The position numbers were made by a program, and so were the translations under genes. Below, in pieces: positions 5,835-58,403 of a stretch of DNA of 64,000 nt; position 1 is the first letter of the stretch; each line of letters opens with the position of its first letter. The notes beneath the pieces are model-generated. The model had not been told where the DNA came from. It did no database searches and worked only from the letters and a program-made list of their open reading frames with translations. This stretch comes from an uncultured bacterium (lineage in GTDB: Bacteria; Babelota; Babeliae; Babelales; Babelaceae): assembly GCA_963713855.1 (NCBI GenBank), contig OY970209.1, positions 1,408,001-1,472,000 of the forward strand, written 5' to 3'.

Positions 5835-7243
5835 CCCAGAAATAATTTTGTCTCGATCGACTCCAACCAGTCGCGATCTATGCTTTCAAATTTTCTTATA
5901 ACTGGTTTATTATATCGTTCTCGAAGAAAATTATAGCTATACAGTGCTTGTTTTTTATCATCTTCATTTTGATGATTAGATAAATGGCTGATAACACGTG
6001 ATAGTAAGTCCAATGTTTGATCCTTGCCCTGTATGACTTCCGCTTTCCAACTATCAAAAAGCAGTTCTTTCCAACGCTCATACTCTCGCTTTTCTTTTTG
6101 GAGCACTTCCTGATATTTCTTTTTCAACACGGATCCCATAATCGTTTTTTTTGCAAGTTTTGGAAAAAGTTCCTCGGTTTGCAAAGGCACACATTTGCCC
6201 CGATTTTTCCACTCGTTAAGCGCCTTAATAACATCAATGCCATGGTCTTTCAAAAAACCAGCCATATAAAAAACACGTTCAACGTTTGAAGGATGGGGAG
6301 AGATAAAAATGCATCTTTCTGAATGAATTGGAGAATCAGTTTGTTTAGCCCAAATATCCATCATCTGTAAGATGGGGCTTATTTTGCGCTGCTCAAAAAG
6401 CTTATCAAGCATAAACAAGTCTGCGCGCCTTTCCTTTGAAAACCTGTAAAATGCTTCTTCGTCTTGCGTTAATTCATCCCAAATTGGTTCGTCTGGATGG
6501 CCAGTTAGGAGCTTACTGATCTCGAGATTGTGAGAGCTCTCAAATATTTTTTTGCCTATTAAACTATAGCGCTCGATTCTTTTAAGATCGTTCAGAAAAG
6601 ATTTTTTACTAATAAGGTCGTCGATTGATTTGATGCCTCGTTCCAGTTGCCTCTTGGAAAAACCATCCTTATTATGAATGTGGCCCAATTCATGATAAAG
6701 AGCAAACAATAAACTATCCGTATCGGGAGAGGTTTTACACAAAGCAACATAGGGAGTTTTCATACCTAGACCTGAATAGGCCTGATAACCGGATTTAGCA
6801 GACGTTGCTAAAGTAATGACGTCGCCAGTCAATTCCGTTTTTTGCTGAGCTTTTTTGGACAGCTCTAAAAGTTCAAGAGTGGGATATTCCCATCCTTCAT
6901 GCTCTTCTATCAATGTAAGTGTTTCAATTTCTTGTCTGAGATCATCTAAAAATGGTTTAGAAATGTCTTTAACTGATTCTGCTTTTGAAAAACCTAAAAA
7001 TTCTCGCAAAAAATTGTAAGCACGCAGTATGTCAGTTTCATCACTTGAATCTTTTTGAGCTCTTTGTTCAGATTCTATGAAATCTAACACTTTTGCAATG
7101 CCACTAATAAATGTTGGTGATTTATCCTTATAAGCCTCATTGACCTCATGCTCCAACTTTTGAAACGGCAATGAGGATGTATCTGCCTGCACGTAGCAGG
7201 AAGATATCAAAAAAAGTAAAAGCTTGAAGATCGAAACCCTCAT
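5759..7243 (-). CDS. Exported M48-like zinc metallopeptidase flanked by two YNxLR motifs
   Basis: Signal peptide; LYHELGH (HEXXH), ERRAD and HPSNVER. Confidence 0.7.
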   Translation of the reverse strand: MRVSIFKLLLFLISSCYVQADTSSLPFQKLEHEVNEAYKDKSPTFISGIAKVLDFIESEQRAQKDSSDETDILRAYNFLREFLGFSKAESVKDISKPFLDDLRQEIETLTLIEEHEGWEYPTLELLELSKKAQQKTELTGDVITLATSAKSGYQAYSGLGMKTPYVALCKTSPDTDSLLFALYHELGHIHNKDGFSKRQLERGIKSIDDLISKKSFLNDLKRIERYSLIGKKIFESSHNLEISKLLTGHPDEPIWDELTQDEEAFYRFSKERRADLFMLDKLFEQRKISPILQMMDIWAKQTDSPIHSERCIFISPHPSNVERVFYMAGFLKDHGIDVIKALNEWKNRGKCVPLQTEELFPKLAKKTIMGSVLKKKYQEVLQKEKREYERWKELLFDSWKAEVIQGKDQTLDLLSRVISHLSNHQNEDDKKQALYSYNFLRERYNKPVIRKFESIDRDWLESIETKLFLGQEGDTILDSGRDTKYILLSNTKYS

Positions 7244-7244
7244 G

Positions 7245-8021
7245 TTAGACCTTTAAAAGCAAGTGTGATTCAGTACTATTTTTATACGAGGTCTTAGCTC
7301 CATCTTTAGCAGCGTCAACTGCCTTAACTATGGCTCGTACTTCCTCTATACTAAGTGCCCACACACATGGATCCCCATCCCATTTTTTTTCTTGCATCTT
7401 GAAGAGCAAATAATCTGAGAAAGTAGTTTCGCGCAAGCGGCAATTATAACTTTCAAAGCATTCTTGCCATTTAACCACATCTTCAATCATGTTTGGATCG
7501 TCGATGTGCTCAATCAAGAAGAACAGCATAGGTCTGACATAATCGTGAGTTATACACCATTGGTAGTCGACCCATTCAATCACGTTGACTAATGATTGCG
7601 CTGTCACACGTGCACCTTGCGCAAGAAGGCTCGCGCTTTGAGCTCGATTTAGCCCACGCGCAGCCTTTGCTAACGCTTTATCAAGCGGGGATGCAAATCC
7701 CTTAAAAGTCTTTTTTTCGTCTTGTTTTTTGAATGAGTAAAATGGCGATTCTTGCATCTTTGGTTGCTCACTTACCCCGAACAATGAGTTATAAAAGGCT
7801 TGCCCTTTTACAAATTCATCGTGGGCTTCTTTGTAGTCACCTCTTTTATCAGGATGGCATTTGAGCACAAAGTCCTTGTAAGCCTTTTTTATTTCATGTA
7901 TAGAACTGGATGAGGTGACTTCAGGATGCGCACAATCTATCGTTTTTGTCTGAGTTTTGATTGTTGAGAGAGAGATGAATAAAAGGATAAGAAAAAATGA
8001 GTATAAGCCCTTAAAAAGCAT
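7245..8021 (-). CDS. Signal-peptide protein with N-terminal J-domain
   Basis: EIKKAYKDFVLKCHPDK (HPD motif); ATG at 8021 behind AAGGAG; stop lies next to the start of the M48-like gene. Confidence 0.75.
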   Translation of the reverse strand: MLFKGLYSFFLILLFISLSTIKTQTKTIDCAHPEVTSSSSIHEIKKAYKDFVLKCHPDKRGDYKEAHDEFVKGQAFYNSLFGVSEQPKMQESPFYSFKKQDEKKTFKGFASPLDKALAKAARGLNRAQSASLLAQGARVTAQSLVNVIEWVDYQWCITHDYVRPMLFFLIEHIDDPNMIEDVVKWQECFESYNCRLRETTFSDYLLFKMQEKKWDGDPCVWALSIEEVRAIVKAVDAAKDGAKTSYKNSTESHLLLKV

Positions 8022-8211
8022 TTTAAACTCCTTCAACTACTTTAACTTTTTATTCAATTTCATAATAGCAAATATTATAAAATAAAGCGATACGAAAAAG
8101 ACAGTCACAGGATCAAGATGATGCTTTGTAGCTTTAAACCCATGCGATTCCTACATTGATCGCTTTGTCAAGACAATGAGCGATTCGATATTGACGTACA
8201 AGCCCAAGAAT

Positions 8212-8574
8212 TTATGCTGATGCGTAGAATGAAGAGACTTTATATGTCTTACAAGTATCATCAGCTGCGACCTTCGATGAGGCTGTCAATTTTTTACCTT
8301 CACTTACTTGGGTGACAGCAAGCAAGAGCCCGCTCAAGGGATCATAAGCATTAAGTGTGACGGCGGCGTTAAATAATTGATTTTCTCCTGGCTTGATACT
8401 CACCGACTGAATCCCCTTAGGTATGCCCTTCAATGTGGAAAAAAGAGCCGCCTTAGTACTGTAAGCTGTATCGTTCAGAACGTTTATGCAAACGCTCTTT
8501 TCTATAACACCGGGTATTAGTCCCTGTGCAGAGCTGCAAATAGCTAATAAGGCTAGGTATACGTATTTTTTCAT
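8212..8574 (-). CDS. Small exported hypothetical protein
   Basis: Signal peptide, AGGAG RBS, two Cys in the mature part. Confidence 0.7.
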   Translation of the reverse strand: MKKYVYLALLAICSSAQGLIPGVIEKSVCINVLNDTAYSTKAALFSTLKGIPKGIQSVSIKPGENQLFNAAVTLNAYDPLSGLLLAVTQVSEGKKLTASSKVAADDTCKTYKVSSFYASA

Positions 8575-8644
8575 TCTATTCTCCTTTAATATGGTGGCTG
8601 AGCGCGATTTTAATACTCCTTAAATACATTTCAGCGTGCTGATC

Positions 8645-9073
8645 TTAAGCGCATGGCACCCAGGACGCAACAAATTTTCCTTTAGAATCCTTGTTAATAT
8701 AGATAGTAAGTGGATGGAAAGTAGCCTTACAAAATGCACGCGGATCCAAAGAAACCCGTTGTGACACACTCGCAGCGTAGAATAGAGGAAACATACTTGG
8801 CGTACTTGATCCTGAAGAAACATTAAGATAGTTTGCGCAACAACCGATAGGTGTTGAGGTGTAGACCGTTGATAATTGACCACTCGTTTGGCCAGCCTTG
8901 AGTGTAGTGGATGCATTACTACATCCGCCAAGACCACCGAGTAAATTCCCGCCAATCATTTCCACCTTGATTGTTTCATTCTTGAGGCAGTTAACCACAT
9001 AGTAACTATACCCTCTGGCCGACGCAGCTAGAAACAACATCCCGACGCAAAATAGCAAGGAAAAAAGTTTCAT
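8645..9073 (-). CDS. Small exported Cys-containing hypothetical protein
   Basis: Signal peptide, AAGGAG RBS, six Cys in the mature part. Confidence 0.7.
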   Translation of the reverse strand: MKLFSLLFCVGMLFLAASARGYSYYVVNCLKNETIKVEMIGGNLLGGLGGCSNASTTLKAGQTSGQLSTVYTSTPIGCCANYLNVSSGSSTPSMFPLFYAASVSQRVSLDPRAFCKATFHPLTIYINKDSKGKFVASWVPCA

Positions 9074-9173
9074 TTACTCTCCTTCTATCATTTAATTAAT
9101 TTAATAATAAACTATTTTGATTAAAAAGAGCAAGAATTAGGAGGTCGAAGAGTGCATAGATCTGCATACAGCC

Positions 9174-9857
9174 TTACTTTTGCTGAGCCAATAAATCCAG
9201 GAGTGCTTTGGCAGCCGGTCCTGACGATGCGGGATTCTGTCCAGTCACAAGGCGTCCATCAACAAGTACAAAGCTATGCCAATCTGGTGCCTTTTGGTAG
9301 ATAGCGCCCACTCTTTTAAGCTCATCTTCGACCAGAAAGGGAACAACCTTGGTCAAGTGCATGGCTTCTTCTTCGCCATCGGTAAAGCCCGTCACTCGCT
9401 TGCCTTTTATGAGTAAGGCATCGTTAATTCTTACTCGATGGAGCACACCGGAAGCGTGACAGACTGCTGCAACAGGTTTTCCTGAGTTATAAAAAGACTC
9501 AATGAGATCAATCGCATCAGGATTATCGACAATGTCCCACATCGGGCCATGTCCACCCACAAAAAAAACAGTATCAAAATCTTTGGCTTTCATGTCAGCT
9601 AGCTTAGCTGTTTGAGAAAGCGCTTTTTGTGCAACCTTATCTTGCTTGAAGCGTGCCATCGCAGGAGTTTGATTTTCTGGTAGATCGCTTTTAGGGTCTA
9701 CAGGTGGTTGACCACCTTTTGGTGAGGCAAGCGTTACGTCTGCTCCGGCATCCCTAAATACAAAATAAGGAGCTGCAAATTCTTCAAGCCAAAACCCGGT
9801 CTTGCGACCAGTGTTACCTAGTTGATCGTGCGATGTCAGTACCATAAGGATCTTCAT
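9174..9857 (-). CDS. DJ-1/PfpI family (glyoxalase III/Hsp31-like) protein
   Basis: KILMVLTSH, TGFWLEE, GGHGPMWD, AAVCH, VTGQNPAS. Start placed at the ATG at 9857. Confidence 0.92.
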   Translation of the reverse strand: MKILMVLTSHDQLGNTGRKTGFWLEEFAAPYFVFRDAGADVTLASPKGGQPPVDPKSDLPENQTPAMARFKQDKVAQKALSQTAKLADMKAKDFDTVFFVGGHGPMWDIVDNPDAIDLIESFYNSGKPVAAVCHASGVLHRVRINDALLIKGKRVTGFTDGEEEAMHLTKVVPFLVEDELKRVGAIYQKAPDWHSFVLVDGRLVTGQNPASSGPAAKALLDLLAQQK

Positions 9858-9916
9858 GCTCGTTTTCTCCTGCCCTTCTTTATAGGTTGATTTTACATTG
9901 CTTAAAAAGTAACCTT

Positions 9917-10438: not shown

Positions 10439-10538
10439 TATTAGCCTTACATTCACCAAAGGTTTTACGAAACTATACCATAAAAGCTGATGTATCATAC
10501 GTAAAAAAAACTAAATTACGTAAAGCACCCGTGACATA

Positions 10539-15942: not shown

Positions 15943-17136
15943 ATGAAATTATCCCACATAATTACATGCACATTGCTATATGCAATGAACTTATCATTGT
16001 ATGCTGGTTGTTGTCTTCAATACTTTACCACCTACGATGTACCTGCAAGCTCGGGAAACGTTTCAAGGATTGCAGTTTCGCCCAATGGCTCTTATTTAGC
16101 CAGTTCAAATTGGAATCCTCCTCAATCAAGCACAGTCACCATATTTAACTTGACTGGCACTTTTTCTGCTAATTCTTACCCAATACCCCATGGAACTGCG
16201 GGCGATAATACCCCCCTTGCAATCCAATTTTCACCAAATGGTTCTTTTCTTGCCACCGCCAATACTTCAAATGACATAACAATTTTTCAAGTTAGTGCAC
16301 AAGGTGTGCTTAGCGGAGCGGTTTCCTATCCAATGGGCACTAATTGCTGTAGTAGCTTGGTATTTACGCCAGACAGCTCGCACATTGCAGTTCTTGGAAC
16401 AGGTTCAAATAGTGTTATTATGTGCGCAATATCTGGTACTGGAGTAATAACGGGAAGTACTTCCTACACACTACCTACTGGAGCCACTTCTCCACAAGCG
16501 CTGGCTATTTCACCCAACGGCTCGCTTCTTGCAACATGTAATGGTTCAGGAAATGTAACTTTATTTAAGTTGAGTAATGGCGTGCTAAGTGGAGGAACAA
16601 ATACCGCTACATCATCCGATGGTGCTAATGGGATAACGTTTTCACCTGATGGTACCTTGCTTGCAGTTGCCAATAATAGTACATTTGGTTCTGGAAATAT
16701 AAGTCTGTTTGGTGTATCAGGCGGTGCACTCAGCGCTGTTACAAATTATGCTCTACCTTCGGGTTCTCATGGCCCAACTGATCTTGCTTTCTCGCCAGAT
16801 AATGCTTGCCTTGTTGTTTCTAATGGAGGTGACTTTAGTTCAAATAACCTAAACACATTTACCGTATCTGGAGGCACGCTCACCAACGCCACGGCTTTTA
16901 CTGTTCTTGCTGGATACCCAGTATTTTTCGGATCTTATCTTGCCACAGGCGGAGGTAACGGTCCAGTGGTATTTCTCAATACTTTCTCTGAAGGCACATG
17001 TCAAACTACGACCGCAACTACAGCAACCGGGACAACAGCAACTCAAACTACGACTAGCACAACCGGTTCATCTGATGCTTCCTCCATAAGTAATTCACTT
17101 CACCTACTTTACAAGATGCGCTCCTTGTTCCAGTAA
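15943..17136 (+). CDS. Exported beta-propeller (lactonase/WD40-like) with Thr-rich tail
   Basis: Repeated FSP[DN]G..LA..N...[VI][TS][IL]F blades, signal peptide, poly-Thr/Ser C-terminus. Confidence 0.85.
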   Translation: MKLSHIITCTLLYAMNLSLYAGCCLQYFTTYDVPASSGNVSRIAVSPNGSYLASSNWNPPQSSTVTIFNLTGTFSANSYPIPHGTAGDNTPLAIQFSPNGSFLATANTSNDITIFQVSAQGVLSGAVSYPMGTNCCSSLVFTPDSSHIAVLGTGSNSVIMCAISGTGVITGSTSYTLPTGATSPQALAISPNGSLLATCNGSGNVTLFKLSNGVLSGGTNTATSSDGANGITFSPDGTLLAVANNSTFGSGNISLFGVSGGALSAVTNYALPSGSHGPTDLAFSPDNACLVVSNGGDFSSNNLNTFTVSGGTLTNATAFTVLAGYPVFFGSYLATGGGNGPVVFLNTFSEGTCQTTTATTATGTTATQTTTSTTGSSDASSISNSLHLLYKMRSLFQ

Positions 17137-20238: not shown

Positions 20239-21480
20239 TCAAGGATTTGATTGCGTATACGCTCTAACTAAAGGATCATTATACCTTCTATAAAGGGCGC
20301 AACAAAAGCCCAGGGCACCAATCAAGGTGACGGAGGCAGTCGCCACACCGATAACTGTTCTGCAAATATCGTCACATTGCTCGTGACTCTCACTTACGTG
20401 ACAACCGAACACCGTTACATCGTTTGAAACTATGTTTGCGGTAGCAAGATATAAGCTATTTGGTGAAAACGTGATTGAGTCTGGACCAACTGAATAAGGT
20501 GGTAAAGAATACTCAGTGAATCTGCTTAGAGTACCTTCAGCATCTACGTTAAATAGTCCTACACCACTTCCATCAAACGCGATAGCAAGATACATACCAT
20601 TTGGTGAAAACGCTGCTGCCTGAGGACGTTCTCCTGAAGGTATTGCGTGTGATAAAGCCTTGTGTAGAGAGCCGTCTAGTCCTACGCTAAATACGGTTAT
20701 ATCTTTTGAAATAGTGTTAGCGGTAGCAAGATACAAACCATCTGGGGAAAATGATGCAGAGCTTGGAGCCTTGGAGTGCGAAGGTAACGCATAAGGCTTA
20801 CCGATGCTCAGTTTACAATCAGCGTCGACGCTAAAAATCGTTACCTCATTTGAATTTTGATTAGCAACAGCCAAAAGCGAACCATTTGGTGAAAATGCTA
20901 TAGACACGGGAGCTCCGGCTCCTGAAGGTAATGCGTATGATGTACCTTCGCTCAGTTGGCCGCCCATTACATGAAATAGGGTCACATTGGTTGATTCACT
21001 ATTAGCGGTAGCAAGACATAATCCATTTGGCGAAAATGCTAAGGCAACAGGTTGTGTGGAACCAGGAGGCAATGGATATGAAGTAGATGTCTTAAAATTG
21101 CTATCCGCTCCTACATCAAATAATGTCACGTCATTCGAACCTTTGTTAGCAGTAGCCAAATACCAGCTATCTGGCGAAAATGCTAATGCGTTAGGAGTTT
21201 TAGAGCCTAAAGGCAAAAGGAGAGAAATAGCATCACTCAACACTCCCCCCTCTTTTACACTAAACATTGTTACATCATTCGAACCAGGAGGAAAATCACT
21301 ATTATTGCCGTTAGCGGTAGCAAGATACGCTCCGTTTGGTGAAAACACTACTGATCGTGGACTTTTAGAGCCGACAGGCAAAGAATAGGACATACCACCA
21401 TTATCGAATGAACAATTAGCAGTGATTTGTGTACAGCTTACGACGGCTAGAATCGTGATAAGTAAAATAGTAACATTCAT
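20239..21480 (-). CDS. Exported 7-blade beta-propeller with C-terminal TM anchor
   Basis: Seven FSP[ND] blades; ATG at 21480 behind GGGGAG; TM followed by RRY. Confidence 0.88.
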   Translation of the reverse strand: MNVTILLITILAVVSCTQITANCSFDNGGMSYSLPVGSKSPRSVVFSPNGAYLATANGNNSDFPPGSNDVTMFSVKEGGVLSDAISLLLPLGSKTPNALAFSPDSWYLATANKGSNDVTLFDVGADSNFKTSTSYPLPPGSTQPVALAFSPNGLCLATANSESTNVTLFHVMGGQLSEGTSYALPSGAGAPVSIAFSPNGSLLAVANQNSNEVTIFSVDADCKLSIGKPYALPSHSKAPSSASFSPDGLYLATANTISKDITVFSVGLDGSLHKALSHAIPSGERPQAAAFSPNGMYLAIAFDGSGVGLFNVDAEGTLSRFTEYSLPPYSVGPDSITFSPNSLYLATANIVSNDVTVFGCHVSESHEQCDDICRTVIGVATASVTLIGALGFCCALYRRYNDPLVRAYTQSNP

Positions 21481-21801
21481 TTGCTTCTCCCCATGACGGT
21501 TTTCTAAAGACCTACATGCATCAACATCCCTGACTCTAGTGAAGCATAATATAATTGTCAACGATAGTACCTTGCCCAATAGCTTCAAGATAACAGCGTT
21601 TGAACAATCTGAGAAAATGATGAAAAGAGTTTTGGGCACAACTTTGTAGGACGTCTTGTCAATGCGTCTCTAGGACCAAGCTGCTTGGCATGCGATTCGT
21701 TTTACAATCTTCTAATGACTGAGAAGCTTTGAAAAGACTAGCGGCAGGATTCAATATTCAAAAAAAACTAAATGATTAGAAATTCAAAAACTGCATAAAA
21801 T

Positions 21802-22831: not shown

Positions 22832-24067
22832 TTATTCAACGTCGTTATTATGATGTAAATACGAAAGTGTTTCCGTAAGAAAGCTCTGTTTGAAAGAGCT
22901 CGCAGCACCTGTGCTCGTTCCTGCACCCGTGCTTGCAGTAGTGCCTGTGCCCGTCGCTGTAGTAACACCTGTGCTCGTAACTGTGCTTGGACAGCCAGAG
23001 GTGGCAAACAAGGTTACATCATTTGATATTTCGTTAGCGGTAGCTACGTAATTGCCTGAAGGTGAGAACACCACCGACAAAGGATTCTGAGAGCCATTTG
23101 GTAATAGGTAAGATGCGGCTCCACTCAATACTCCGCCCGCTCCGACAGTAAACAGGGTGACATCATTCGAACCATTGTTTGAACTCACTAAATAATTGCC
23201 CGATGGCGAAAATGCTACTGACGAGGGTTGTAGAGAAACAGATGGTACCGTATAAGACATGGCACTATTTATGGCTCCTCCAGTTCCCACCTGAAATATG
23301 GTAACATCACCCACGTTACCATTTGAACTACCGTTAGCAGTAGCAATATAAGAACCATTTGGCGAAAAAGTTACTGACTGAGGTCCGCTAGAAGGATAAG
23401 GCAACGCAGAGGATTTTCCTCCGCTTAACGCTCCTCCTGCTCCCACCGTAAATACCGTTACGTCATTTGAAGTACTGTTAGCAGTGGCCACATAATTACC
23501 CGACGGCGCGAATGCTATTGAGACGGGATTGGTAGAACCGGCAGGTAAATCGTAAGATGCTCCTACACTCAATACCCCTCCTGCTCCAACCTGAAACACT
23601 GTTACATTATTCGAGAACGTATTAGCAGTAGCCACGTAATTACCAGATGGTGAAAACGCTATTGAAAGAGGATTGCCAGAACCATTCGGTAAAGCATACG
23701 AAGAAGCTCCGCTTAATGCTCCTCCTGCCCCTACCTGAAACATGGTGACATTGATCTGGTAATAATTGGCGATAGCGAGGTACGCACCCGACGGGGAAAA
23801 CGCTATTGATCTAGCTTCGGAAGGAAAATTAGGCAATGTATAGGACATGCTTCCACTTAATACTCCGCCGGCTTCAACCGTAAATACTGTTACGTTATTT
23901 GAAGCATCATTAGCAGTAACCACATAATTTCCTGATGGTGAAAACGCAACTGAAAAAGGAGCTTTAGAACCAGTAGGCAACGGATATGATGTTCCGCACA
24001 TTGCGCACAAACGCACATGCGCCATTAAAAACAATGCCGCCGTTATGATTGTTTTCATCATCTTCAT
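22832..24067 (-). CDS. Exported 7-blade beta-propeller with Thr/Gly-rich tail
   Basis: Seven regular blades of type SYxLPxGS..P.S[IV]AFSPSG.Y.ATAN..SN[DN]VT.F.VG.GG.LS. Confidence 0.9.
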   Translation of the reverse strand: MKMMKTIITAALFLMAHVRLCAMCGTSYPLPTGSKAPFSVAFSPSGNYVVTANDASNNVTVFTVEAGGVLSGSMSYTLPNFPSEARSIAFSPSGAYLAIANYYQINVTMFQVGAGGALSGASSYALPNGSGNPLSIAFSPSGNYVATANTFSNNVTVFQVGAGGVLSVGASYDLPAGSTNPVSIAFAPSGNYVATANSTSNDVTVFTVGAGGALSGGKSSALPYPSSGPQSVTFSPNGSYIATANGSSNGNVGDVTIFQVGTGGAINSAMSYTVPSVSLQPSSVAFSPSGNYLVSSNNGSNDVTLFTVGAGGVLSGAASYLLPNGSQNPLSVVFSPSGNYVATANEISNDVTLFATSGCPSTVTSTGVTTATGTGTTASTGAGTSTGAASSFKQSFLTETLSYLHHNNDVE

Positions 24068-28114: not shown

Positions 28115-30400
28115 ATGAAACTTGTCCTTTTATTGTGTGCATTGCTATTCACGGTGCATTTAGAATGTATAGCTATTTGCTCTTTGCAACCGGGCGTATC
28201 ATATCCGGCACCTATTGGATCCATACAACCAGGGTCAGCAAAATTCTCACCCTCTGGCACATATTTAGCTATTGGGAATAGAGTCTCAAACAATGTGGCG
28301 ATGTTTACCCTTACTGAAGGCGTTTTAACGGGAGGCAAACTGTATGCTCTTCCTGTAGGCTCTACAGCTATAGGTGACATAGGTTTTTCCCCGGATGGTG
28401 CTTATCTTGCAACACCAAATGTCAGTTCAAATAATGTCACGATATTTTCTGTCGGAGTAGAAGGACAACTCACGGGAGCAACTTCATACCCACTCCCCGT
28501 CGGCTCAACGAGTCCCCAGGCACTCACATTTTCACCGTCAGGTTTATATTTAGCCACTGCTAATCCGGGTTCCAATGACGTAACAATATTTACCGTAGGA
28601 GTTGGTGGAGTTTTAAACGCGGGTACATCGTATACCGTACCTGCAGGCTCACCTTATCTCGTAGCATTTTCACCCGACGGAGCATATTTAGCAGTCACTA
28701 ATGCAAGCGCAAATAGCGTGACAATGTTTACGGTCGGAATAGGCGGAACCTTAAGTAATCCCATCGCTTATCCTTTACCCGGAACTTCCGCAGGTCCGCA
28801 GGGAGTAGCATTCTCACCTTCAGGAACGTATTTAGTTACCGCTAACAATACCTCCAATGATGTTAGTTTATTTACTGTAGGATCGGGAGGAATTTTAAGT
28901 CCAGGCACATCATATCCTTTACCTTCCGGTTCCACGGGTCCCCATCTAATAGCTTTTTCTTCTGACAGCAAGTATGTGTCAACAACCGACTTTACCTCAA
29001 ACGCAGTAACTTTGTTTACCATAAGTCTTAACAGCACGCTCACAAATTCTGCCTCGTATCCGTTGCCTTCCGGTTCTACTATACCCTCGGGGTTGGCGTT
29101 TTCACCTTCCGTAAACTATGTAGCTACTGCTAACAATGGGGGCGATATAACACTATTTAGTACTGCAGGCTGCCAAGTAAACCAAACGAGCACAGGAGTT
29201 TCTTATCCATTACCTCTTGGTTCTCAGGAACCGGACGCAATAATCTTTTCGAATGATGCAACACTTCTTGCAACAGCGAATTATAATACGAGCGACGTAA
29301 CCCTCTTTGCCGTAAATCCCCAAAATACATTGAATACCGGTACTTCTTTTTCTTTACCATCAGGTTCATTTTCTCCATCAAGTCTCGCGTTTTCTCAAAA
29401 TACCTCATATCTAGCAACTGCCAATAGCAAATCAAACGACGTTACCGTATTTAAAGTATCTGCTGGAAAACTCATATCGGGTAATTCATTCAAACTTCCA
29501 GCAGGCTCTTCTGAGCCTACATCAATCAATTTCTCGCCAAACGATGCTTATCTTCTTACGGCAAATAGCAATTCAAGCGACATAACAGTGTTTAAGATGA
29601 TCTCCGGAGCTTTAACTGGTGCTCTTTCATACACGTTACCTTCTGGATCCATTTCTCCGGTTTCTTTAGCTTTCGCGCCGGATGGCTCCTATCTTGCAAC
29701 CGCGAATGTTATCTCGAATGACGTAACGCTTTTTAACCTAACCAATGGCGTATTGGATAGTATATCGTCCCAGTCTTTACCAGCTTCTTCTAATAGGCCA
29801 CGCTCGATCGTCTTTTTGGCCACTTTAAATGGTGAACTTTTTATTGCTACAGCTAATAGTGATTCAAATGACGTAACGGTATTTCCCATCAATGGAGGCT
29901 TATTGGGCTTAGGAAAATCCTATCAACTGCCCGTGGGCTCTATTAATCCTTTGTTTGTCGCAGTATCGTCCAATGGTGCGTACTTAGCCACTGCTGATAG
30001 CGCTTCCAATAGCATTACGCTATTTAAAGTTACCAATGACACATTAGAACTAGCTACTTCTTATTCCCTACCTCCTGCATCAAGCAGCGATGTAGCTTTA
30101 ACCTTTTCACCAGTTTTTTCAAATGGGGACATACTTATTGCAACAGCAAATAGCGGTTCAAACGATGTTTCAGTCTTTCCTCTTTTAGGAGCAGGAACAG
30201 GAAGTGAAGGAGGCGATGGTGGAGGTTTTAACAATGCTTATATTGGTATAATCGTTGGAACGACGGTCGGAATTCCTCTCGTTCTTGGCGGACTGACTAT
30301 AGCAGGCCTAGCGGGCTTTGCTTTGTATAAGTACTCACTAAGACACAAAGGCGTTGGAAGCGTTAATTTTAGCGGTGATGAATCATCAGCCACGCTCTAA
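28115..30400 (+). CDS. Exported tandem double beta-propeller with C-terminal TM anchor
   Basis: About 14 blades in two sets joined by GCQVNQTSTG; Gly linker, long TM, short tail. Confidence 0.9.
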   Translation: MKLVLLLCALLFTVHLECIAICSLQPGVSYPAPIGSIQPGSAKFSPSGTYLAIGNRVSNNVAMFTLTEGVLTGGKLYALPVGSTAIGDIGFSPDGAYLATPNVSSNNVTIFSVGVEGQLTGATSYPLPVGSTSPQALTFSPSGLYLATANPGSNDVTIFTVGVGGVLNAGTSYTVPAGSPYLVAFSPDGAYLAVTNASANSVTMFTVGIGGTLSNPIAYPLPGTSAGPQGVAFSPSGTYLVTANNTSNDVSLFTVGSGGILSPGTSYPLPSGSTGPHLIAFSSDSKYVSTTDFTSNAVTLFTISLNSTLTNSASYPLPSGSTIPSGLAFSPSVNYVATANNGGDITLFSTAGCQVNQTSTGVSYPLPLGSQEPDAIIFSNDATLLATANYNTSDVTLFAVNPQNTLNTGTSFSLPSGSFSPSSLAFSQNTSYLATANSKSNDVTVFKVSAGKLISGNSFKLPAGSSEPTSINFSPNDAYLLTANSNSSDITVFKMISGALTGALSYTLPSGSISPVSLAFAPDGSYLATANVISNDVTLFNLTNGVLDSISSQSLPASSNRPRSIVFLATLNGELFIATANSDSNDVTVFPINGGLLGLGKSYQLPVGSINPLFVAVSSNGAYLATADSASNSITLFKVTNDTLELATSYSLPPASSSDVALTFSPVFSNGDILIATANSGSNDVSVFPLLGAGTGSEGGDGGGFNNAYIGIIVGTTVGIPLVLGGLTIAGLAGFALYKYSLRHKGVGSVNFSGDESSATL

Positions 30401-33494: not shown

Positions 33495-34763
33495 TTAATT
33501 TACCTGCACCGAACTAAGCAACTGTAGGCGCTCAGCAGAGTTTTTATTAAAATAATATTTCTTCAACAAGAAAGCACTAATTAGTATAGCAGTACCTAAA
33601 GCTAAGGTGCCCCCAACACTAACCCCGATAATACAGCCAACACCACAACCATCATCATCTTGAGAACCACTATTTTGAGATGCAAGTGTTGCTATAATTA
33701 TCGAGCTATTTGGAGTTTCGTCAGAAGGGCCATATGTATTAGCAATAGCAATAAACATACCGTTAGGCGAAAACGAAACTCCAAAAGGGTTGCCGGTTCC
33801 CGATGGTAAGCTGTACGAAAATGGATTAGTTAAACCACCATTCTTTGGATTGGCTGCCGTAAACAAGTTCATATCATTTGATTGGTAATTCACAACAGCC
33901 AGACAATTACCGTTAGGTGAAAACGCCAATGCATTCGGCTTATTGGAATTTGATGGTAAAACATACGAGGTCGGCTGACCAATCACCTTATCATTTACCT
34001 CAAACAAAGTTACATCATTTGAATCGTAATTTGTGGAAGCAAGATACGAGCCATCTGGCGAAAATAGAACGGCGCCCGGCTTACGAGAAGTAGAGGGCAA
34101 TGGGTGCGAAGTACCATTCGTGAGTTTTCCTTCTATGACTCGAAAGACAGTCACATCATTGCTAACTAAATTAGCAGTGGCAAGCAGCGAATTATCAGGT
34201 GAAAAAGTTACCCAATACGTTTCCGATGAGCCTACTGGTAAAGCGTATGATACGCCAGGGCTCAATATTCCACCGGGTTTTACACCAAACATCGTCACGT
34301 CATTTGAAAATACGTTAGCAGTTGCAAGATATAAACCATTCGGCGAAAATGCTATCGATTGAGGATAGGTTGATCCTGAGGGCAAAGCATACGTAGCATT
34401 GACAGCTAAAGTACCACCTGGACTTACGTTAAAAACTGTTACATCGTATGAATAATAATTAGAAGTAGCAAGATATAAACCATCCGGCGAAAATGCTAAT
34501 GAAGAAGGATTATTAGAATGACCTGGCAACGGATAGGTGGCACCTTCATTAATTACTCCATCATTGAATGCAAACATAGTTATTGCATTTGAATTAAGAT
34601 CGGGGCTAGCAAGATATGCGCCATTGGGGGAAAATAATACCAAATTAATCCACTTAACATTGGTATGCAACGAATGCGCCTCCAAGGACGATACATCGCA
34701 GTTCTTAGACTCCAAGTTAGCCACAACAATAAACAGACTCGCTACAAAATACATCTTCATCAT
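33495..34763 (-). CDS. Exported 7-blade beta-propeller with C-terminal TM anchor
   Basis: Seven FSP[ND] blades; TM followed by KKYY and a short tail. Confidence 0.88.
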   Translation of the reverse strand: MMKMYFVASLFIVVANLESKNCDVSSLEAHSLHTNVKWINLVLFSPNGAYLASPDLNSNAITMFAFNDGVINEGATYPLPGHSNNPSSLAFSPDGLYLATSNYYSYDVTVFNVSPGGTLAVNATYALPSGSTYPQSIAFSPNGLYLATANVFSNDVTMFGVKPGGILSPGVSYALPVGSSETYWVTFSPDNSLLATANLVSNDVTVFRVIEGKLTNGTSHPLPSTSRKPGAVLFSPDGSYLASTNYDSNDVTLFEVNDKVIGQPTSYVLPSNSNKPNALAFSPNGNCLAVVNYQSNDMNLFTAANPKNGGLTNPFSYSLPSGTGNPFGVSFSPNGMFIAIANTYGPSDETPNSSIIIATLASQNSGSQDDDGCGVGCIIGVSVGGTLALGTAILISAFLLKKYYFNKNSAERLQLLSSVQVN

Positions 34764-48653: not shown

Positions 48654-48898
48654 GCGCTACTCGGATAAAGGTTTAAAATGATTTTCTGTATTTGACTATA
48701 CCAATAGTAACTTTATTGTCAATAATTTGATAATTATATTTTAAAACTGAATATAAATATCATTATTTTACGACTCGAGTGAGTTAGCACACTATGCAAG
48801 ATAAAATCGTTCTCGTCAACGCTGAGTGCATTTGTTTTGACTTTCCTATTTTATATATTTATAACTGTATAAAACAGACTACCCTTAAGGATATTTTT

Positions 48899-49624
48899 AT
48901 GAAAAAAACGCTCGTAGGTATATTTCTATTGACTAACTTCTGGTGTTTCATCAGTTGCTCCGATGTACAAAACTTCGAGTTAAAAATAATTAATAATTTG
49001 AAAGATGAGCTTGAAGTTGTTATAGCAGATTCAGCTTCTCCGTTTAGGCGTTTGAGATGGACGGTGCCAACCGGAACCTATAAAACGAAACTGGGCGTAA
49101 CTGATCTTAATAAGCCATATCTGCAATATATAAGTGTATCGCAATGCGTAAGTATGGCTGCCAAGCTTTGGTCTTTAGCTCATGGGTATGTCAAAGAGAT
49201 TATTTATGAGGAAAATCTTGTCGAACTGCCAACAACATTTTCAACGTACGGTCCTCTTATTATTGAAATATCTAAAGATAATACTGGAAAGATATTTACA
49301 AGAAGATACTGGGAAAAAACAGCAGACCTATTTCAAAAGACAAATGCTCATTATGCTAAAGAGTACATTAATCTCGAAACATACGAAAAAGGACAAGAAA
49401 CGCCTGACCATCGACCTATCAGATTCTTTGATGAGAATTTAGCAGAACAGTATGAAATTCTCGGCTTAAAACAGGGCAGTACAGAACAAGAAATCAAAAA
49501 AGCCTATCGAAAACTTGTACTTGAATGGCATCCTGATAAACACGAAAACAAAGCTATGGCACAACAGATGATGCAAAAAATTAATCAAGCTTACGAGGCT
49601 CTTTTGGCCTTTCGAAATCAATAG
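48899..49624 (+). CDS. Signal-peptide protein with C-terminal J-domain
   Basis: YEILGL......EIKKAYRKL.LEWHPDK...INQAYEAL; ATG at 48899 behind AAGGA. Confidence 0.88.
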   Translation: MKKTLVGIFLLTNFWCFISCSDVQNFELKIINNLKDELEVVIADSASPFRRLRWTVPTGTYKTKLGVTDLNKPYLQYISVSQCVSMAAKLWSLAHGYVKEIIYEENLVELPTTFSTYGPLIIEISKDNTGKIFTRRYWEKTADLFQKTNAHYAKEYINLETYEKGQETPDHRPIRFFDENLAEQYEILGLKQGSTEQEIKKAYRKLVLEWHPDKHENKAMAQQMMQKINQAYEALLAFRNQ

Positions 49625-51395: not shown

Positions 51396-51419
51396 GCGTA
51401 CCTCACTACTTCAAAAGTG

Positions 51420-53239: not shown

Positions 53240-54466
53240 TTAAACGGGCGTTGTTCGCAAGATCCGATGTATCAGGAAACTAGCTATACCTGTTCCTACC
53301 ATCAAAAGCACAAGGGTAGCTGGCACCCCTAACGTCGTTCCTAGAATTACGCCCGGAGGTCGCAGCCATTTATTCCAAAAGAATTCATTTCGAGAGAGCT
53401 CTTGAGAAAGACCGCTGACCACAAACACTGTCATATCATTGAGATTGGAAGTAATTAATAATGTCTCGTCACCATTTTGCGCAAAAACGATTGATGTAGG
53501 CTTTATAGAGTTGGATGACAGACCATAGGTTGTCGCTCCGTTACCGCAATCTAAAGGGTGATAACCATATATAGGTAAACCCCATGTCGTGACATCGTCT
53601 GATTCTGTATTTACGGCAACAATGTGCTGACTATCTGGTGAAAAGACGATAGCACTAAGGCCCTTTGAAAGGAAAGGTTCTGCACATGGAATAGCATCAA
53701 TCAATAGACCATCTTCGGTTACCTTAAAAAACGATACATCGCCTGACTTATTAGCAGTAACAATATGTTTTCCATCGGGAGAAAACGCTATAGATACGGG
53801 ATTGTTCGAAGGCTCTGGCAACGCAAAAGGCGACTTATAAGTTTCACTCAAGGTGCCATCTTGATTCACCTCAAGAATTGTTATATTGTTTGATTTTTCA
53901 TTAGCTATAGCAAGAAGCTCACCATTCGGTGAAAAGGTTGCATCATGTTTACCATCAGGAAAAGCTGAAAAGGTGTAATTAGAAACTTTGCTTAATTCTG
54001 CGTTGCGAGTTACGTGTAACAATGTCACTTCGTTCGAATTTTTGTAGGTAATAGCCAAATGCTTACCATCCGGAGAAAATACCGTTGAAGAGAGATCTAA
54101 AGAGGGCAGAGTGAAAGTAAAATCAGTTTGAGTCAGCAGACCATCATCATTTACCAGAAACATAGTTACAAGAGTATTACAGCTAAAGGCTAAGAACTGG
54201 CCATCCGGCGAAAATGCTAACGAGTAACTTTTAGAAGTCCCCAGAGATACAGTAGACCTGTCACTCAATGAAAGTCCCTTATCTTTTATTTTCAAGATAA
54301 CGATTCTTGACCTTTTATCAATCATAGCCAAATGACGACCATTTGGACTTACCTTGAGGGAATCGCCAGCAAAATCAAAGCTTTTTGCGTGCCGCAACAA
54401 GATTGCGTTTATGGGAACGAAAACTGGCATGAGTATAAAAATATACTTTACGATGCTTTTTAACAT
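53240..54466 (-). CDS. Exported beta-propeller with C-terminal TM anchor (divergent paralog)
   Basis: Repeated FSPDG blades, ALP..S..P.SIAFSPDG, TM followed by HRILR. Confidence 0.85.
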   Translation of the reverse strand: MLKSIVKYIFILMPVFVPINAILLRHAKSFDFAGDSLKVSPNGRHLAMIDKRSRIVILKIKDKGLSLSDRSTVSLGTSKSYSLAFSPDGQFLAFSCNTLVTMFLVNDDGLLTQTDFTFTLPSLDLSSTVFSPDGKHLAITYKNSNEVTLLHVTRNAELSKVSNYTFSAFPDGKHDATFSPNGELLAIANEKSNNITILEVNQDGTLSETYKSPFALPEPSNNPVSIAFSPDGKHIVTANKSGDVSFFKVTEDGLLIDAIPCAEPFLSKGLSAIVFSPDSQHIVAVNTESDDVTTWGLPIYGYHPLDCGNGATTYGLSSNSIKPTSIVFAQNGDETLLITSNLNDMTVFVVSGLSQELSRNEFFWNKWLRPPGVILGTTLGVPATLVLLMVGTGIASFLIHRILRTTPV

Positions 54467-54885
54467 ATTTTACCTATTACAATAAGTCCAGATTTCAGTA
54501 CTATATTTCGTATTTTAGATCATCAGTTATTTTTGTAAAGCGAAGAAGCATCGATTTCGCTTCTAGCTGGGCTTTCAAGTGAAATACAAGAGCTTATTAG
54601 AATACAGTCAGCCAAACTTATTATCTTTATACTTCTAAATCTTAAAACCCGAATTTATAAATATTAGAAATTATTATAATTGCTAGGTAACACTATCGTG
54701 AAATCATTAACGCTATACCTAATTGCAGTTCTTGTGTTCTGTTGGCCAAGCAAAAGAACAGGAGGCGTTAATAAGCGAGGCTCAAGGTGTTGTGCTAAAA
54801 GGCCAGGAAGCTAAAGGAGTATTTACGTCAGACGATAAGAAGTACGCTTACATTTTATATCAGGAGCTTTAACAAGCCTTAAAGG

Positions 54886-55500
54886 CTATGCCTGCTGATT
54901 ATTGCTTGTTCTGTATTGCTTTAGCATTTTTTTGACCTTATTTACATATGCCTCACGTGTATCTTGCCAAGCCTTAATAACTCGTTCTTTTGAAGCATCG
55001 GGATTTTGTAACAAAAACTGTTGAGTAAAATTAATATAAGCCCATTCTTTTTTAGGAGGCACTTTCTCATGTTGTCTACGGGTATATTGTTGCTGCCAGA
55101 ATGCGGCAAACTCTGCATATGTAGGAGGATCACCCAGCATCCAGCGGTTTTTAAGCCAGTCAATTCCGAACGCAGTAAAATGAAAATGATTGCCCACAAG
55201 TACTTTAAAAAATGCCCGAGTTTTGGCATCATTCTTGTACGCGCCATATAACATCAAGGCACTGGTTTCTAGACGATATCGCACACCTTTTTTTGCCTTC
55301 GATATGGTCGGAATTTGCTTTGGTGGTACTATTTTGCCAGTCTCTATATATGTCATAATACGATGGATCAGCTCAATTTTATTGCCGTTTGTTGGCAAAC
55401 TATACGATAAGCACACATCTTTAAGCTCATTCATTTTCATATAGTGCAAAGCTTCATTTAATGCAAGTAATTCGGCTGCTGACCATAGATGCGCCTTCAT
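54886..55500 (-). CDS. SAP-domain protein with DUF6434-like region
   Basis: MKMNELKDVC....LPTNGNKIELIHRI (SAP pattern); RAFFK..VG.HFHF and TYAE....W. Start placed at 55500. Confidence 0.72.
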   Translation of the reverse strand: MKAHLWSAAELLALNEALHYMKMNELKDVCLSYSLPTNGNKIELIHRIMTYIETGKIVPPKQIPTISKAKKGVRYRLETSALMLYGAYKNDAKTRAFFKVLVGNHFHFTAFGIDWLKNRWMLGDPPTYAEFAAFWQQQYTRRQHEKVPPKKEWAYINFTQQFLLQNPDASKERVIKAWQDTREAYVNKVKKMLKQYRTSNNQQA

Positions 55501-55937
55501 ATCTTCCCATTTCAGATTTTTTCGGCTTCGATTGCGAGCTATCAAATCTAGTTTTACGTCTTTAAGAATTGCTTGCAAGATATTTGCTATTTTATTCGGA
55601 GCCCTGTTCGATCAATAATTTCACGATTGTCGTGAGCACCGCAACTCTGATGAAAAAATAGCGCGAATCAAAGATGTTTGGGCGCTGGTGCAGAATAAAT
55701 AATTTCCACATCTCGAATCTTGAATTTCAGCTACCTCTATAGCCCAAATTCTAAGTCGCGAGGATTGTACTATCGCTGGCTGTCCACGCTTAATCCAACT
55801 ATCTGGAATCAGCCTAGAAAAAGAAAACTGATCTGCGCTTGATACAAAAGAAATCATTGACTAATATACTTATAAAATCTTATATTTAGATTATATATTT
55901 CATGAATTATATTTTCGGGCTTTCATGAGAGGCAATC

Positions 55938-58403
55938 ATGAGGATTTTATGTTCATACCTATTTTTAATGTGTTGTATAGGCTCAGCTTCATTGTACAGT
56001 AACGCTCCTCTAGAAATTGAAATTGCAAGTAAAGATCTCGCCTTAAAAAATCAACAAGAGTTCGAAGAAAAATTAAACTCTTTAATAAGCGTCGCTAAAT
56101 CCACCCTTGCAAAACCTCTGACCGAGAATAATAAAAGATACGCTTCTCAAATACACACCCAGCTATCAGTTTTGCTTGATATTTATGGGCATCGATATCC
56201 TATCGAGCCATCATTGCGTAAAGAAATCGTAAACCTACTCACTAAGCCTTCCGATACTGCGCCAACTAAAAAAGAAAGCCCTATAAAAGCAACAGAGGTA
56301 TCTATACCTGCACTCGGACTTACTTATCACCCAGGCTTTAAACTTCCTTTCATAAAGCAAAGCCCTGGTCAAATACTTACCCAAACACAAGTTTATTTAC
56401 AGGTTCCCGAATTGAGGAGCCGGGCATATAGTCTTATAAGATCATTAGAACAAGAACATGGCACTGAAGCTATTGCTCCTTATCTCTCATTAATACCTGA
56501 TATTATACGACAAGAAGTTGCGCTCAAGGATTATGATGTATTCTACCATGGACAACATGGTGATTTCGCATTTTTATACGATGTTATTAAGGAAATACAA
56601 CAGTGGCTAGCTGTTCGTCAAGAAACGAAGCACTTTGAGTATCTTCGAACTCCAGGTATGTTCCATCTCGATCAAAGCCTAAAAGAATTTCTTAAAGCAA
56701 CTTTTAGCGAAGATCAAAGTGCTTTCTCTCAGGGAAGTTTTGACAAAACACACCAAGATCTTCTCCTCTCTGTTAATTTATCACTTTTTGGTAGTTCTGA
56801 TGCATCTAATGAATCTTCATTTGCTTATTTCGTTGCAGGATATAATGCCTACACATCATCAACTCGTCCTCTGCTAGAGAAGCTTTTTGACCACTTTGAT
56901 TTCAAGAAATCGTACCTTGACGAGTTATTAGCTCTTTCAGAAAAATTTAGAAAAGGTGCTGAAAAAGGTAACCTTCTACAAATTTTTATGCCACGAGACA
57001 AAGTAAACGACTTGGTCTACTTAAGCGGTGGTTTTGGTGGGTTACCTGTAGGAGTAAAACCTTCATACTTCCATCCATTGGATTTTCCAAGATATGCACA
57101 AGCCCACCCAATCAAGGTAAAGGATGATGCAGGCAAAATACGAACGTATAACTTAAAGACAATGGATACCAGAACCTATCTGGATTTCTACCGCAGCAAT
57201 CCTCAAGCTATTAATCCTGATGATATGGATGTAATTCAAGGAAGGATTCTTCTTAATAATGATTTTCTAACGTACTCTCGCGAAGGAATAAAAATCTATT
57301 CTTACAATTTTATAACCATTAACCACGTCGAACAATACAAAAAAGAATTTAAGAGAATTATTAGCCGTATGATGCTCGACTGGCTTACCAGTCCAACTGA
57401 TACTTTTCTTAAAGAACGTTACCATATTGTTCAGAAAGCTTTTAAAAAATACACACCGGCTTCAAAAGTTGGAATAACTATAACACCTAAGCAAGAAAAC
57501 AAGCATCCATTGGTAAATGAGCAACAACAAGCACGGGATTTTTGGAAAAAATATTTTGCCCTTCAAAAAGCTCGCCGTAAAAAATTTCAGACACCTATAC
57601 CGTCCAGAAGACCCTATGCCAAAGGTGAAAAAGATGTAATGACGGTACGTTGGGCATTAGATCAATTTTTAACAGCAAGTGATAAAAGAGAGAGACTGGA
57701 TGCCTACAATGCTCTTAGAGAACTATTTAACCTTGAGCTTGCAGTTGCTCCCATTGAGATCGATACAGAATGGGTCTCAAATGAGAATCGCCAATCCCTT
57801 ATACAAATTATGAAAAATAACCTAGCATTAAATGAATCCTCAGTTGAAAAGAAGGTCTATCTGCTAAATTCCATATTTGAACCGGAATGTTTCGGCGAAG
57901 ATTATCTCCACTTATTTAAAAGTACTTCGGAACGCAGCACTATCTTAGATGAGATGCGGCTTATAGCTTATAATGAACTACGTAGCATGCTTCATCAATC
58001 AACCGCTCTATCAACAAACGATATAGATGAGGCATGGTTAGACCACCAAGATACTACTCTGTTTAAATACATCGTTAATACACATTTAGTACAGAGCTTA
58101 AATACATCTCCAAAACAGCAGTACTTTCTTACAGCCCTTGCTCTTGGTGACGTGTATCCATTAAGTCATCTTTTAGAGAACTCTACGTACGACTTATGTT
58201 TTTCCGAAGAACGTGAAGAGCGAATAAGATTTAACGCTTATAATCTCCTACGTCAGATGCTCAATCTTGCTGTAGCACCCTCGCCATTTCACATGGATAA
58301 AACCTGGCTTGAGAACATACACGGAAAATTAAACGATGTGTTTCATTCCACTAAAAAAGGACGGCAGTTTCTAGATTCTTTAACAGAGTCTTTTTTTGGA
58401 TAG
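55938..58403 (+). CDS. Large exported protein with a possible ADP-ribosyltransferase-like core and three C-terminal YNxLR repeats
   Basis: 821 aa, signal peptide; VFYHG, LLSVNLS, LLQIF, QGRILL; three YNxLR...[IM]DxxW units. Confidence 0.6.
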   Translation: MRILCSYLFLMCCIGSASLYSNAPLEIEIASKDLALKNQQEFEEKLNSLISVAKSTLAKPLTENNKRYASQIHTQLSVLLDIYGHRYPIEPSLRKEIVNLLTKPSDTAPTKKESPIKATEVSIPALGLTYHPGFKLPFIKQSPGQILTQTQVYLQVPELRSRAYSLIRSLEQEHGTEAIAPYLSLIPDIIRQEVALKDYDVFYHGQHGDFAFLYDVIKEIQQWLAVRQETKHFEYLRTPGMFHLDQSLKEFLKATFSEDQSAFSQGSFDKTHQDLLLSVNLSLFGSSDASNESSFAYFVAGYNAYTSSTRPLLEKLFDHFDFKKSYLDELLALSEKFRKGAEKGNLLQIFMPRDKVNDLVYLSGGFGGLPVGVKPSYFHPLDFPRYAQAHPIKVKDDAGKIRTYNLKTMDTRTYLDFYRSNPQAINPDDMDVIQGRILLNNDFLTYSREGIKIYSYNFITINHVEQYKKEFKRIISRMMLDWLTSPTDTFLKERYHIVQKAFKKYTPASKVGITITPKQENKHPLVNEQQQARDFWKKYFALQKARRKKFQTPIPSRRPYAKGEKDVMTVRWALDQFLTASDKRERLDAYNALRELFNLELAVAPIEIDTEWVSNENRQSLIQIMKNNLALNESSVEKKVYLLNSIFEPECFGEDYLHLFKSTSERSTILDEMRLIAYNELRSMLHQSTALSTNDIDEAWLDHQDTTLFKYIVNTHLVQSLNTSPKQQYFLTALALGDVYPLSHLLENSTYDLCFSEEREERIRFNAYNLLRQMLNLAVAPSPFHMDKTWLENIHGKLNDVFHSTKKGRQFLDSLTESFFG

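Follow-up and report, generated by a model that had tools for sequence, protein, structure and literature searches.

A lineage-restricted YNxLR domain family and its linkage to a predicted M48-like protease in the Babelota

The closest described counterpart of the proteins reported here is BepA (YfgC) of Escherichia coli, a periplasmic, signal-peptide-bearing M48 protease to which a helical interaction domain is appended; its C-terminal TPR domain mediates protein contacts. Here we describe a family of modules of about 70 residues, named after their motif YNxLR, that came to light in a 64 kb stretch of the genome of an uncultured bacterium of the Babelaceae (assembly GCA_963713855.1). The genome is a single contig (OY970209.1) of 1,521,901 bases with 41% G+C, and the stretch, hereafter the window, covers its positions 1408001-1472000. 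Two open reading frames (ORFs) of the window carry the module, ORF1 and ORF2 (Table 1). ORF1 resembles BepA in combining a predicted signal peptide with a soluble HExxH domain of the M48 type and an all-helical domain appended to it, and BepA is the best structural match of its modelled core. Members of this phylum live in obligate association with protists; about half of their proteome looks exported, and very few of the exported proteins have an assigned function.

The module and its family

The window was read in all six frames for YN.LR, and exactly five matches were obtained, two in ORF1 and three in ORF2, where 1.46 are expected from its residue composition. By itself the pentapeptide is therefore merely suggestive, and the decisive evidence lies at the level of profiles. 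A hidden Markov model (HMM) built from 23 seed copies with their flanks converged in four iterations at 71 positions. When it was run against the 5489 stop-to-stop ORFs of at least 60 residues in the 1.52 Mb genome, it found 34 copies in 19 ORFs (the carriers, labelled L0xx), the five window copies among them with domain E-values of 1.1e-12 to 2.9e-19. YN.LR and the same downstream pattern recur in many ORFs across the whole genome. We aligned 32 of the 34 copies (alignment A1), leaving out L012 and the second copy of L001, which are partial and score lowest. In A1 every copy has the Y, and each of N, L and R is conserved in at least 90% of them. The A1 profile gave no match at E ≤ 1e-3 in reversed ORFs (best 0.0036), against 34 domains in the forward set.

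A sequence-only reading of the window had described a gap-free motif of 24 residues, repeated five times across two different exported proteins. All five copies were recovered by the six-frame scan at the positions and with the peptides that it gave, and its description of them is accurate: Y1, N2, L4 and R5 do not vary, four of the five copies have A at position 13 and four of the five have D at position 20, position 19 holds I or M, and W or F stands at position 23. The two copies of ORF1 flank an HExxH core, as it had said, with the HELGH and ERRAD motifs lying between them. Its scale was too low, since the unit is some 70 residues long and present in 34 copies in 19 ORFs of the genome.

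To survey proteins at large, the A1 profile was searched against 1.84 billion representatives, one for each 50%-identity cluster of about 15 billion proteins. There were 148 representatives (labelled P0xxx) at E ≤ 1e-3, 93 at E ≤ 1e-10 and 34 at E ≤ 1e-30, and together they hold 307 module copies. The consensus of these copies retains the Y in 98%, N in 96%, L in 83% and R in 89%, followed by E (71%), S (64%), I (76%), D (81%) and W (91%); their mean net charge is -2.2.

AlphaFold2, run on A1 with the C-terminal copy of ORF1 as first row, predicts three helices at residues 2-18, 23-39 and 53-64, with a predicted local distance difference test score (pLDDT) of 88.6 and a predicted template modelling score (pTM) of 0.77. 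The predicted order is helix 1, a turn, helix 2 ending in YNxLRELL, a loop g-L-P-x-A-x-S and helix 3 opening with ID-x-x-WL, so that YNxLR closes helix 2 and, after a loop of 13 residues, ID..WL opens helix 3. A model of full-length mature ORF1 based on 57 core-bearing sequences (alignment A2; pLDDT 86.0, pTM 0.85) places module helices at residues 24-41, 48-61 and 75-93 and again at 386-401, 406-422 and 436-447. The three copies folded, one alone and two within ORF1, thus give the same three-helix pattern.

No described repeat was found to match the module in Pfam-A, NCBIfam or the literature. In Pfam-A 2025 no family falls on the module in ORF1, ORF2 or the remaining 17 carriers, and in NCBIfam 20.0 none does so in ORF1 or ORF2; when the 32 copies were scanned singly at E ≤ 10, nine Pfam families were matched by one copy each (best E 0.023). 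The literature on exported proteins and proteases of Dependentiae, and on the motif strings, yielded no description of the module. A homologue search with ORF1 returned seven proteins, the sole name being 'hypothetical protein', on three of them. Foldseek of the module against the PDB gave no significant match, the best being a pro-MMP-10 chain (E 2.4, template modelling (TM) score 0.33, probability 0.13), and a wide fold search without Foldseek returned a common arrangement, with the CheA P1 domain best (Z 6.7) amid generic helical bundles. The YNxLR module is a genuine, previously unnamed, lineage-restricted domain family. It is also portable, as had been supposed, being found at N-termini, at C-termini and in arrays of up to six copies.

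Protease linkage, positional subtype and distribution

The principal partner of the module is a protease core. An HExxH motif is present in 87 of the 148 representatives (87 of the 123 with at least 250 residues), commonly in the context pDlD..L..lYHELGHI.h.D, and an HMM of the core matches 85 of the 148 and 11 of the 19 carriers of the genome under study. In this genome every one of the 11 strong core matches (E ≤ 1e-62) is accompanied by one module or more, which is not so for four weaker or fragmentary matches, the neighbour of ORF2 at 58472..59245 among them. The core conserved in A2 spans 250 residues, and its H, E and H as well as the downstream E250, A253 and D254 are invariant in the 57 sequences. 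In M48 proteases a Glu from a helix further downstream, within an ExxAD-like motif, serves as the third zinc ligand.

On the Pfam M48 family PF01435, ORF1 scores 16.1 bits, under the gathering threshold of 20.3. Its paralogues L008 (20.7) and L014 (26.8) pass, while L009 (20.2), L015 (16.9) and L017 (18.3) fail, and among the 148 representatives PF01435 is matched at E ≤ 1e-3 by 12 and either M48 or M78 by 15. The structural comparison is more telling: residues 76-356 of the ORF1 model align with BepA (6ait_E) at Z 11.2 over 173 residues, with a root-mean-square deviation of 4.1, and 6sar follows at Z 10.6, the M48 peptidase 3c37 at 9.5, BlaR1 at 7.7 and Ste24/ZMPSTE24 at 7.3-7.5, with unrelated structures at about 6. 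The best Foldseek match of the ORF1 model was Ste24p (E 0.062, probability 0.90). From its HExxH and ExxAD motifs and the fold that its model shares with solved M48 structures, we assign the ORF1 core to the M48-like HExxH proteases; because ORF1 falls short of the PF01435 threshold and few representatives match that family, the core is called M48-like and taken to be a divergent subfamily.

The representatives contain one module in 58 cases, two in 47, three in 25, four in seven, five in seven and six in four, and some proteins consist of little besides four to six modules. The first module begins within 110 residues of the N-terminus in 125 of the 148, and the last ends within 40 residues of the C-terminus in 71. 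Relative to the HExxH motif of the 87 proteins that have one, modules lie only before it in 55, on both sides in 27 and only after it in five. In the 85 core-bearing representatives, 78 module copies end no more than 45 residues upstream of the core and 48 copies lie behind it. The core-adjacent copies make up a separate subtype: 46 of the 78 have another core-adjacent copy as their nearest neighbour outside their own protein. Across all 307 copies, the position label agrees with that of the nearest neighbour in another protein in 130 cases, against 92.8 +/- 9.5 after shuffling (500 shuffles, maximum 118), a figure that describes the subtypes and is not a probability, because related sequences inflate it. 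Copies that precede another module tend to have an aromatic helix 3, WL....Y..WK......W.

The sequence-only reading had pictured the motif as attached to different catalytic cores. Other partners do exist, and they are few, with the one M48-like core dominating. ORF2 and its paralogue L007 have a domain of about 470 residues in common (34% identity over 468 aligned positions). For the N-terminal part of ORF2, no Pfam family scored above its cut-off, the best phmmer match in the PDB had an E-value of 1.4, and a search of the structure atlas gave no usable match. The rare partners are DnaJ in two representatives (P0018 and P0078, below the Pfam cut-off), ankyrin in one, together with M48, and WD40 in one.

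The distribution of the module is narrow. It was found in five of 31 related genomes, with 34 matches in the genome under study (G000), 41 in a genome of the same genus (G001), 18 in G015, three in G008 and one in G004. In a sample of 261 genomes of the phylum it is likewise confined to five, from four of 145 genera, all in a single family (f1), and it was not found in the remaining 20 families searched; within f1 it is present in four of 40 genomes, G000 not counted. The protease core is distributed almost as narrowly: at E ≤ 1e-10 it occurs in four of 41 f1 genomes (13 matches in G000, 15 in G001, five in G008 and seven in G015), and all four have the module too.

Two loci among the module-bearing genomes show irregular frames. 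At G001:C1:186511-192096, about 5.6 kb of module and core matches lie on one strand in several large frames (587-672 residues), with two matches crossing a stop codon; this looks like a recent tandem duplication with some decay. At the start of the contig of the genome under study, a protease-core fragment and a signal-like N-terminus with a truncated module occupy adjacent frames (L012; G000:C1:32-340 and 339-710, minus strand) and are probably one carrier gene that has been frameshifted.

Export and possible roles

Judged by eye, 15 of the 19 carriers begin with a short, classic hydrophobic signal-like segment, two have a longer hydrophobic N-terminus and two have neither. A lenient signal-peptide heuristic accepts 17 of the 19, against 510 of the 919 other ORFs of at least 200 residues, for a Fisher p of 0.004 in which paralogues are not independent. 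The N-termini of ORF1 and L008 are in addition lipobox-like by regular expression. These calls rest on crude sequence rules rather than a dedicated predictor, and so does the cleavage site of ORF1. Two earlier heuristics did not discriminate between carriers and other proteins (108/148 vs 485/867 and 94/148 vs 335/702). The enrichment in exported proteins that had been anticipated is therefore present only to a modest degree, because the background is high, about half of the proteome looking exported (55% by the heuristic). An exported location of the carriers is nonetheless plausible from their N-termini and from the two secretin genes of the genome, in which no type III or type IV secretion marker was found. 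Deeg et al. report M48 enzymes among the secreted peptidases of another member of the phylum, Chromulinavorax destructans (PMC6561590).

We propose, at what we would call an even chance, that the YNxLR module serves exported proteases as an accessory domain for protein recognition or positioning, analogous to the TPR domain of BepA. The origin or expansion of the module would have gone hand in hand with that of a single clade-specific family of exported M48-like zinc metalloproteases, and would have taken place in a few genera of a phylum whose members depend on hosts and have reduced genomes. Immediately ahead of the protease core stands one module, of the distinct subtype. Later copies would have been placed before or after the core, strung into arrays of as many as six with no other domain, or attached to a handful of unrelated exported proteins, ORF2 among them. 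Each module would keep a substrate, partner or host target in place for the enzyme to which it is attached, with additional copies giving avidity or reach. The multiplicity of one to six and the existence of module-only proteins fit a binding or scaffold unit, and the pTM of the ORF1 model suggests that modules and core are arranged in a defined way. The analysis shows that the copies are homologous, share a predicted helical fold, are restricted in distribution, are tied to the protease core and include a position-specific subtype; passage of the carriers across the inner membrane and further, binding of any kind and the nature of the target are steps that we infer. The sequence-only reading had offered two functions, a translocation signal and a host-cofactor-binding domain; host-cofactor binding is possible, and a plain translocation signal is less likely than a recognition domain.

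Several observations weigh against a recognition domain of exported proteases. Signal-peptide enrichment is weak evidence, given the 55% background and the non-independence of paralogues, and in C. destructans putative signal peptides are reported on 44% of coding sequences (PMC6561590). The array proteins P0002, P0004, P0008 and P0011 fail the crude signal-peptide rule. The module must also work without a protease, because 63 of the 148 representatives have no core. The conserved Y, N, R, D and W may form an exposed binding site or may merely support the helix-loop-helix corner. Finally, the analogy with BepA is one of architecture and not of homology between accessory domains, because the fold search yields generic helical bundles only.

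The same data have to be set against other roles. If the module were a pro-domain, intramolecular chaperone or lid, the copy preceding the core would help the protease to fold, or keep it inhibited, until its activation, and the other copies would be duplicated leftovers. The 78 copies directly upstream of the core, with their distinct subtype, would be expected on this account, and the pTM of 0.85 suggests that the modules pack on the core. The alignment with BepA starts at residues 74-76 of the ORF1 model, within helix 3 of the N-terminal module, and because it begins there, this helix may be common to the protease domain; the top Foldseek match of the isolated module is the pro-MMP-10 chain, a match that is not significant. 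Against this, the signature is kept in the 63 representatives without a core and in the 48 copies behind the core, arrays of four to six copies occur in 18 proteins, the remaining 229 copies go unexplained, and the consensus contains no conserved Cys or His for a zinc-blocking switch. A pro-domain or lid role for the core-adjacent copy is possible, and as an account of the whole family we consider it quite improbable. We put no more trust in an envelope anchor, which would bind the cell's own wall or outer membrane and keep exported enzymes at the surface in the manner of LysM, SLH or PG_binding_1 repeats. One to six copies at the termini of exported hydrolases, a lineage-specific family, the lipobox-like N-termini of ORF1 and L008 and a helix 3 that often has a Trp/Tyr-rich face (W..(5)..Y..WK) would suit such a function; the absence of any wall-binding family among the nine Pfam families matched by the 32 copies, the negative mean charge and the envelope of the phylum, described as degenerated (PMC4776705), would not.

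An export or translocation tag, read by a type II-like secretin machinery or by another route and leading out of the periplasm or into the host, is in our judgement slightly less probable still. It would agree with the position of the first module near the N-terminus, with the signal-peptide-like N-termini of 17 of the 19 carriers and with the machinery encoded in the genome, which has two secretin genes and no match to FHIPEP (type III) or VirB4 (type IV). It sits poorly with up to six copies per protein, with C-terminal copies, with a position-specific subtype tied to the protease core and with the four array proteins that fail the signal-peptide rule, and no portable linear tag is known for type II substrates. 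According to Yeoh et al. (PMC4776705), two gspD copies and ATP/ADP translocases are present in all TM6 genomes studied; the former favours a secretin route, and because 256 of the 261 genomes of the phylum lack the module all the same, the module is not a general requirement of the secretin machinery. The genome under study likewise has four TLC ATP/ADP-translocase matches in a row. Least probable to us is self-association or docking, in which module-bearing enzymes would assemble on module-only arrays into a secreted multi-enzyme complex. Module-only proteins with five to six copies do coexist with enzymes bearing one to three, and a complex prediction for two module copies scored 0.01, which is no answer and carries no weight either way.

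Beyond the recognition domain that we favour, a bolder idea is that the module is the address label of the clade's exported arsenal and that a receptor devoted to it reads this label, be it the type II-like secretin machinery or one abundant structure of the host. We think this unlikely, if a shade less so than the pro-domain and the anchor. Were it true, the bacterium could direct or tether an entire set of enzymes, proteases and others, by copying one 70-residue unit, and the module-only arrays would be multivalent scaffolds for that receptor. Whatever its role, the module marks a coherent, expanded set of putatively exported proteins (19 ORFs here, with 41 and 18 matches in G001 and G015), and this set is tied to an assayable activity, that of a zinc protease, which offers a handle on host action or on envelope upkeep. 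The 70-residue domain is also a candidate entry for domain databases.

Neighbouring genes and comparison with known systems

Table 1. Module-bearing ORFs of the window and their features (positions in the window)
Feature	Position	Strand	Content or basis
ORF1, 494 residues	5759..7243	-	signal peptide (predicted), N-terminal module, M48-like HExxH protease core, long helix, C-terminal module
Signal-peptide-like N-terminus of ORF1, about 20 residues, lipobox-like ISSC	7184..7243	-	heuristic and lipobox regular expression
N-terminal YNxLR module of ORF1, core-adjacent subtype	6896..7126; 24-residue core 6947-7018	-	domain E 1.4e-16
Predicted M48-like zinc-protease core of ORF1	6164..6895	-	HELGH 6680-6694, ERRAD 6419-6433
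C-terminal YNxLR module of ORF1	5813..6031; 24-residue core 5864-5935	-	domain E 2.9e-19
ORF2, 821 residues	55938..58403	+	signal-peptide-like N-terminus, N-terminal region of about 540 residues of no assigned family, three C-terminal modules
ORF2 module 1	57609..57827; core 57705-57776	+	domain E 1.1e-12
ORF2 module 2	57846..58091; core 57969-58040	+	domain E 2.2e-14
ORF2 module 3	58125..58361; core 58239-58310	+	domain E 1.8e-14

The neighbouring gene of ORF2 (58472-59245, minus strand) lies 69 bases past its end on the opposite strand and encodes 257 residues with a predicted signal peptide and a distant M48-like HExxH core (PF01435 18.4 bits; core HMM E 6.7e-16), without a YNxLR module. 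ORF1 is abutted by a gene for a J-domain protein (7245..8036, minus strand) that has a hydrophobic signal-like N-terminus and an HPD motif (PF00226 34.2 bits), and a second J-domain protein, with the J domain at its C-terminus, is encoded at 48794..49624 (plus strand). An exported J domain would be unusual and may act on a host Hsp70. On its other side ORF1 converges with an ORF of 307 residues with several hydrophobic segments (4911-5834, plus strand), which overlaps the ORF1 3' end by 76 bases. Overlapping ORFs at 3107-3886 and 3865-4359 (both minus strand) correspond to the N- and C-terminal parts of an AmpH/class C beta-lactamase-like serine hydrolase, a gene that appears to be split.

Elsewhere in the window, the product of 54886-55578 (minus strand; 230 residues) has a eukaryote-type SAP domain (PF18953 E 5.5e-10, PF02037 E 7e-7) and a sub-cut-off DUF6434 match, and is likely a factor directed to the host nucleus. 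Six paralogous beta-propeller proteins, lactonase/PQQ-repeat-like, lie within 40 kb (15943-17136, 20239-21639, 22832-24067, 28115-30400, 33495-34763 and 53240-54466) and are another expanded family of this accessory-rich region. An ORF of 206 residues at 62830-63450 (minus strand) matches the intein C-terminal splicing region TIGR01443 at 25.8 bits (cut-off 15.6). A scan of the window against Rfam found zero RNA families.

Several known domains were considered as identities of the module and set aside. Over a stretch of about 60 residues that takes in YN..R and DID, the module profile can be aligned with the type III needle proteins PrgI (E 0.24 and 0.96) and BsaL (E 0.39; PF09392), which make up three of the six PDB sequences returned at E ≤ 10; none of these matches is significant. 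The needle helix is continuous at the site of the module loop. Unlike it, the module has a loop that contains Pro, and the best PF09392 match of the genome scores 12.7 bits against 29.4, in a frame with stops, there being no FHIPEP match either; a needle mimic was therefore rejected.

A language-model search ranked clusters of the integrase SAM-like domain PF13102 first, with a score of 0.95, but only 113 of 256 features are common to the two, which is the range of chance matches or distant relatives. Representative P0005 reaches 23.6 bits on PF13102 (cut-off 22.3). We reject the SAM-like domains (PF13102, PF02899), since only one of the 32 copies matches PF13102 (E 0.025), and hhalign of A1 against 29 XerC/D SAM_1 domains (alignment A3, used in place of PF13102 itself) gives a probability of 0.12%; the net charge of the module is also unlike that of a DNA-binding domain. 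In G004 the module ORF adjoins a truncated XerC/D-like gene, as a separate ORF. Phage_int_SAM_1 at E ≤ 1e-5 is present in 27 of the 31 related genomes and was found in none of G000, G015, G012 and G009.

Like the pro-domain of matrix metalloproteinases (MMPs) and PG_binding_1, the module is small, has three helices and precedes a zinc protease; this identity fails on the Foldseek values given above, no copy matches PF01471, and the consensus shows no residue resembling a cysteine switch. The J domain was suggested by the appearance of YNxLR..LG...S..I and by the neighbouring J-domain gene. J domains carry HPD in the loop that joins helices II and III; HPD is missing from the module consensus, PF00226 matches none of the 32 copies, and the 50 rows of the wide fold search contain no J domain. 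A Swi5 match (E 0.0034) spans only helices 1-2 up to YN.LR and is read as coiled-coil resemblance. TPR and Sel1 repeats are built of helix-turn-helix units of 34-36 residues; the module is a unit of about 70 residues with three helices, and no such family falls on its copies or carriers.

It is here that the likeness to BepA ends. The helical domain of ORF1 is not a TPR domain, and it sits before the protease core and often behind it as well; it is built from a 70-residue unit, YNxLR..ID..WL, predicted to form three helices, which is repeated up to six times and also occurs without a protease. Nothing known is overturned by these findings, because exported proteases with helical accessory domains are a common theme, and so are effector repeats specific to one lineage. 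What is new is the YNxLR family; helical modules on exported proteases, and the expansion of such families in host-dependent bacteria, are familiar.

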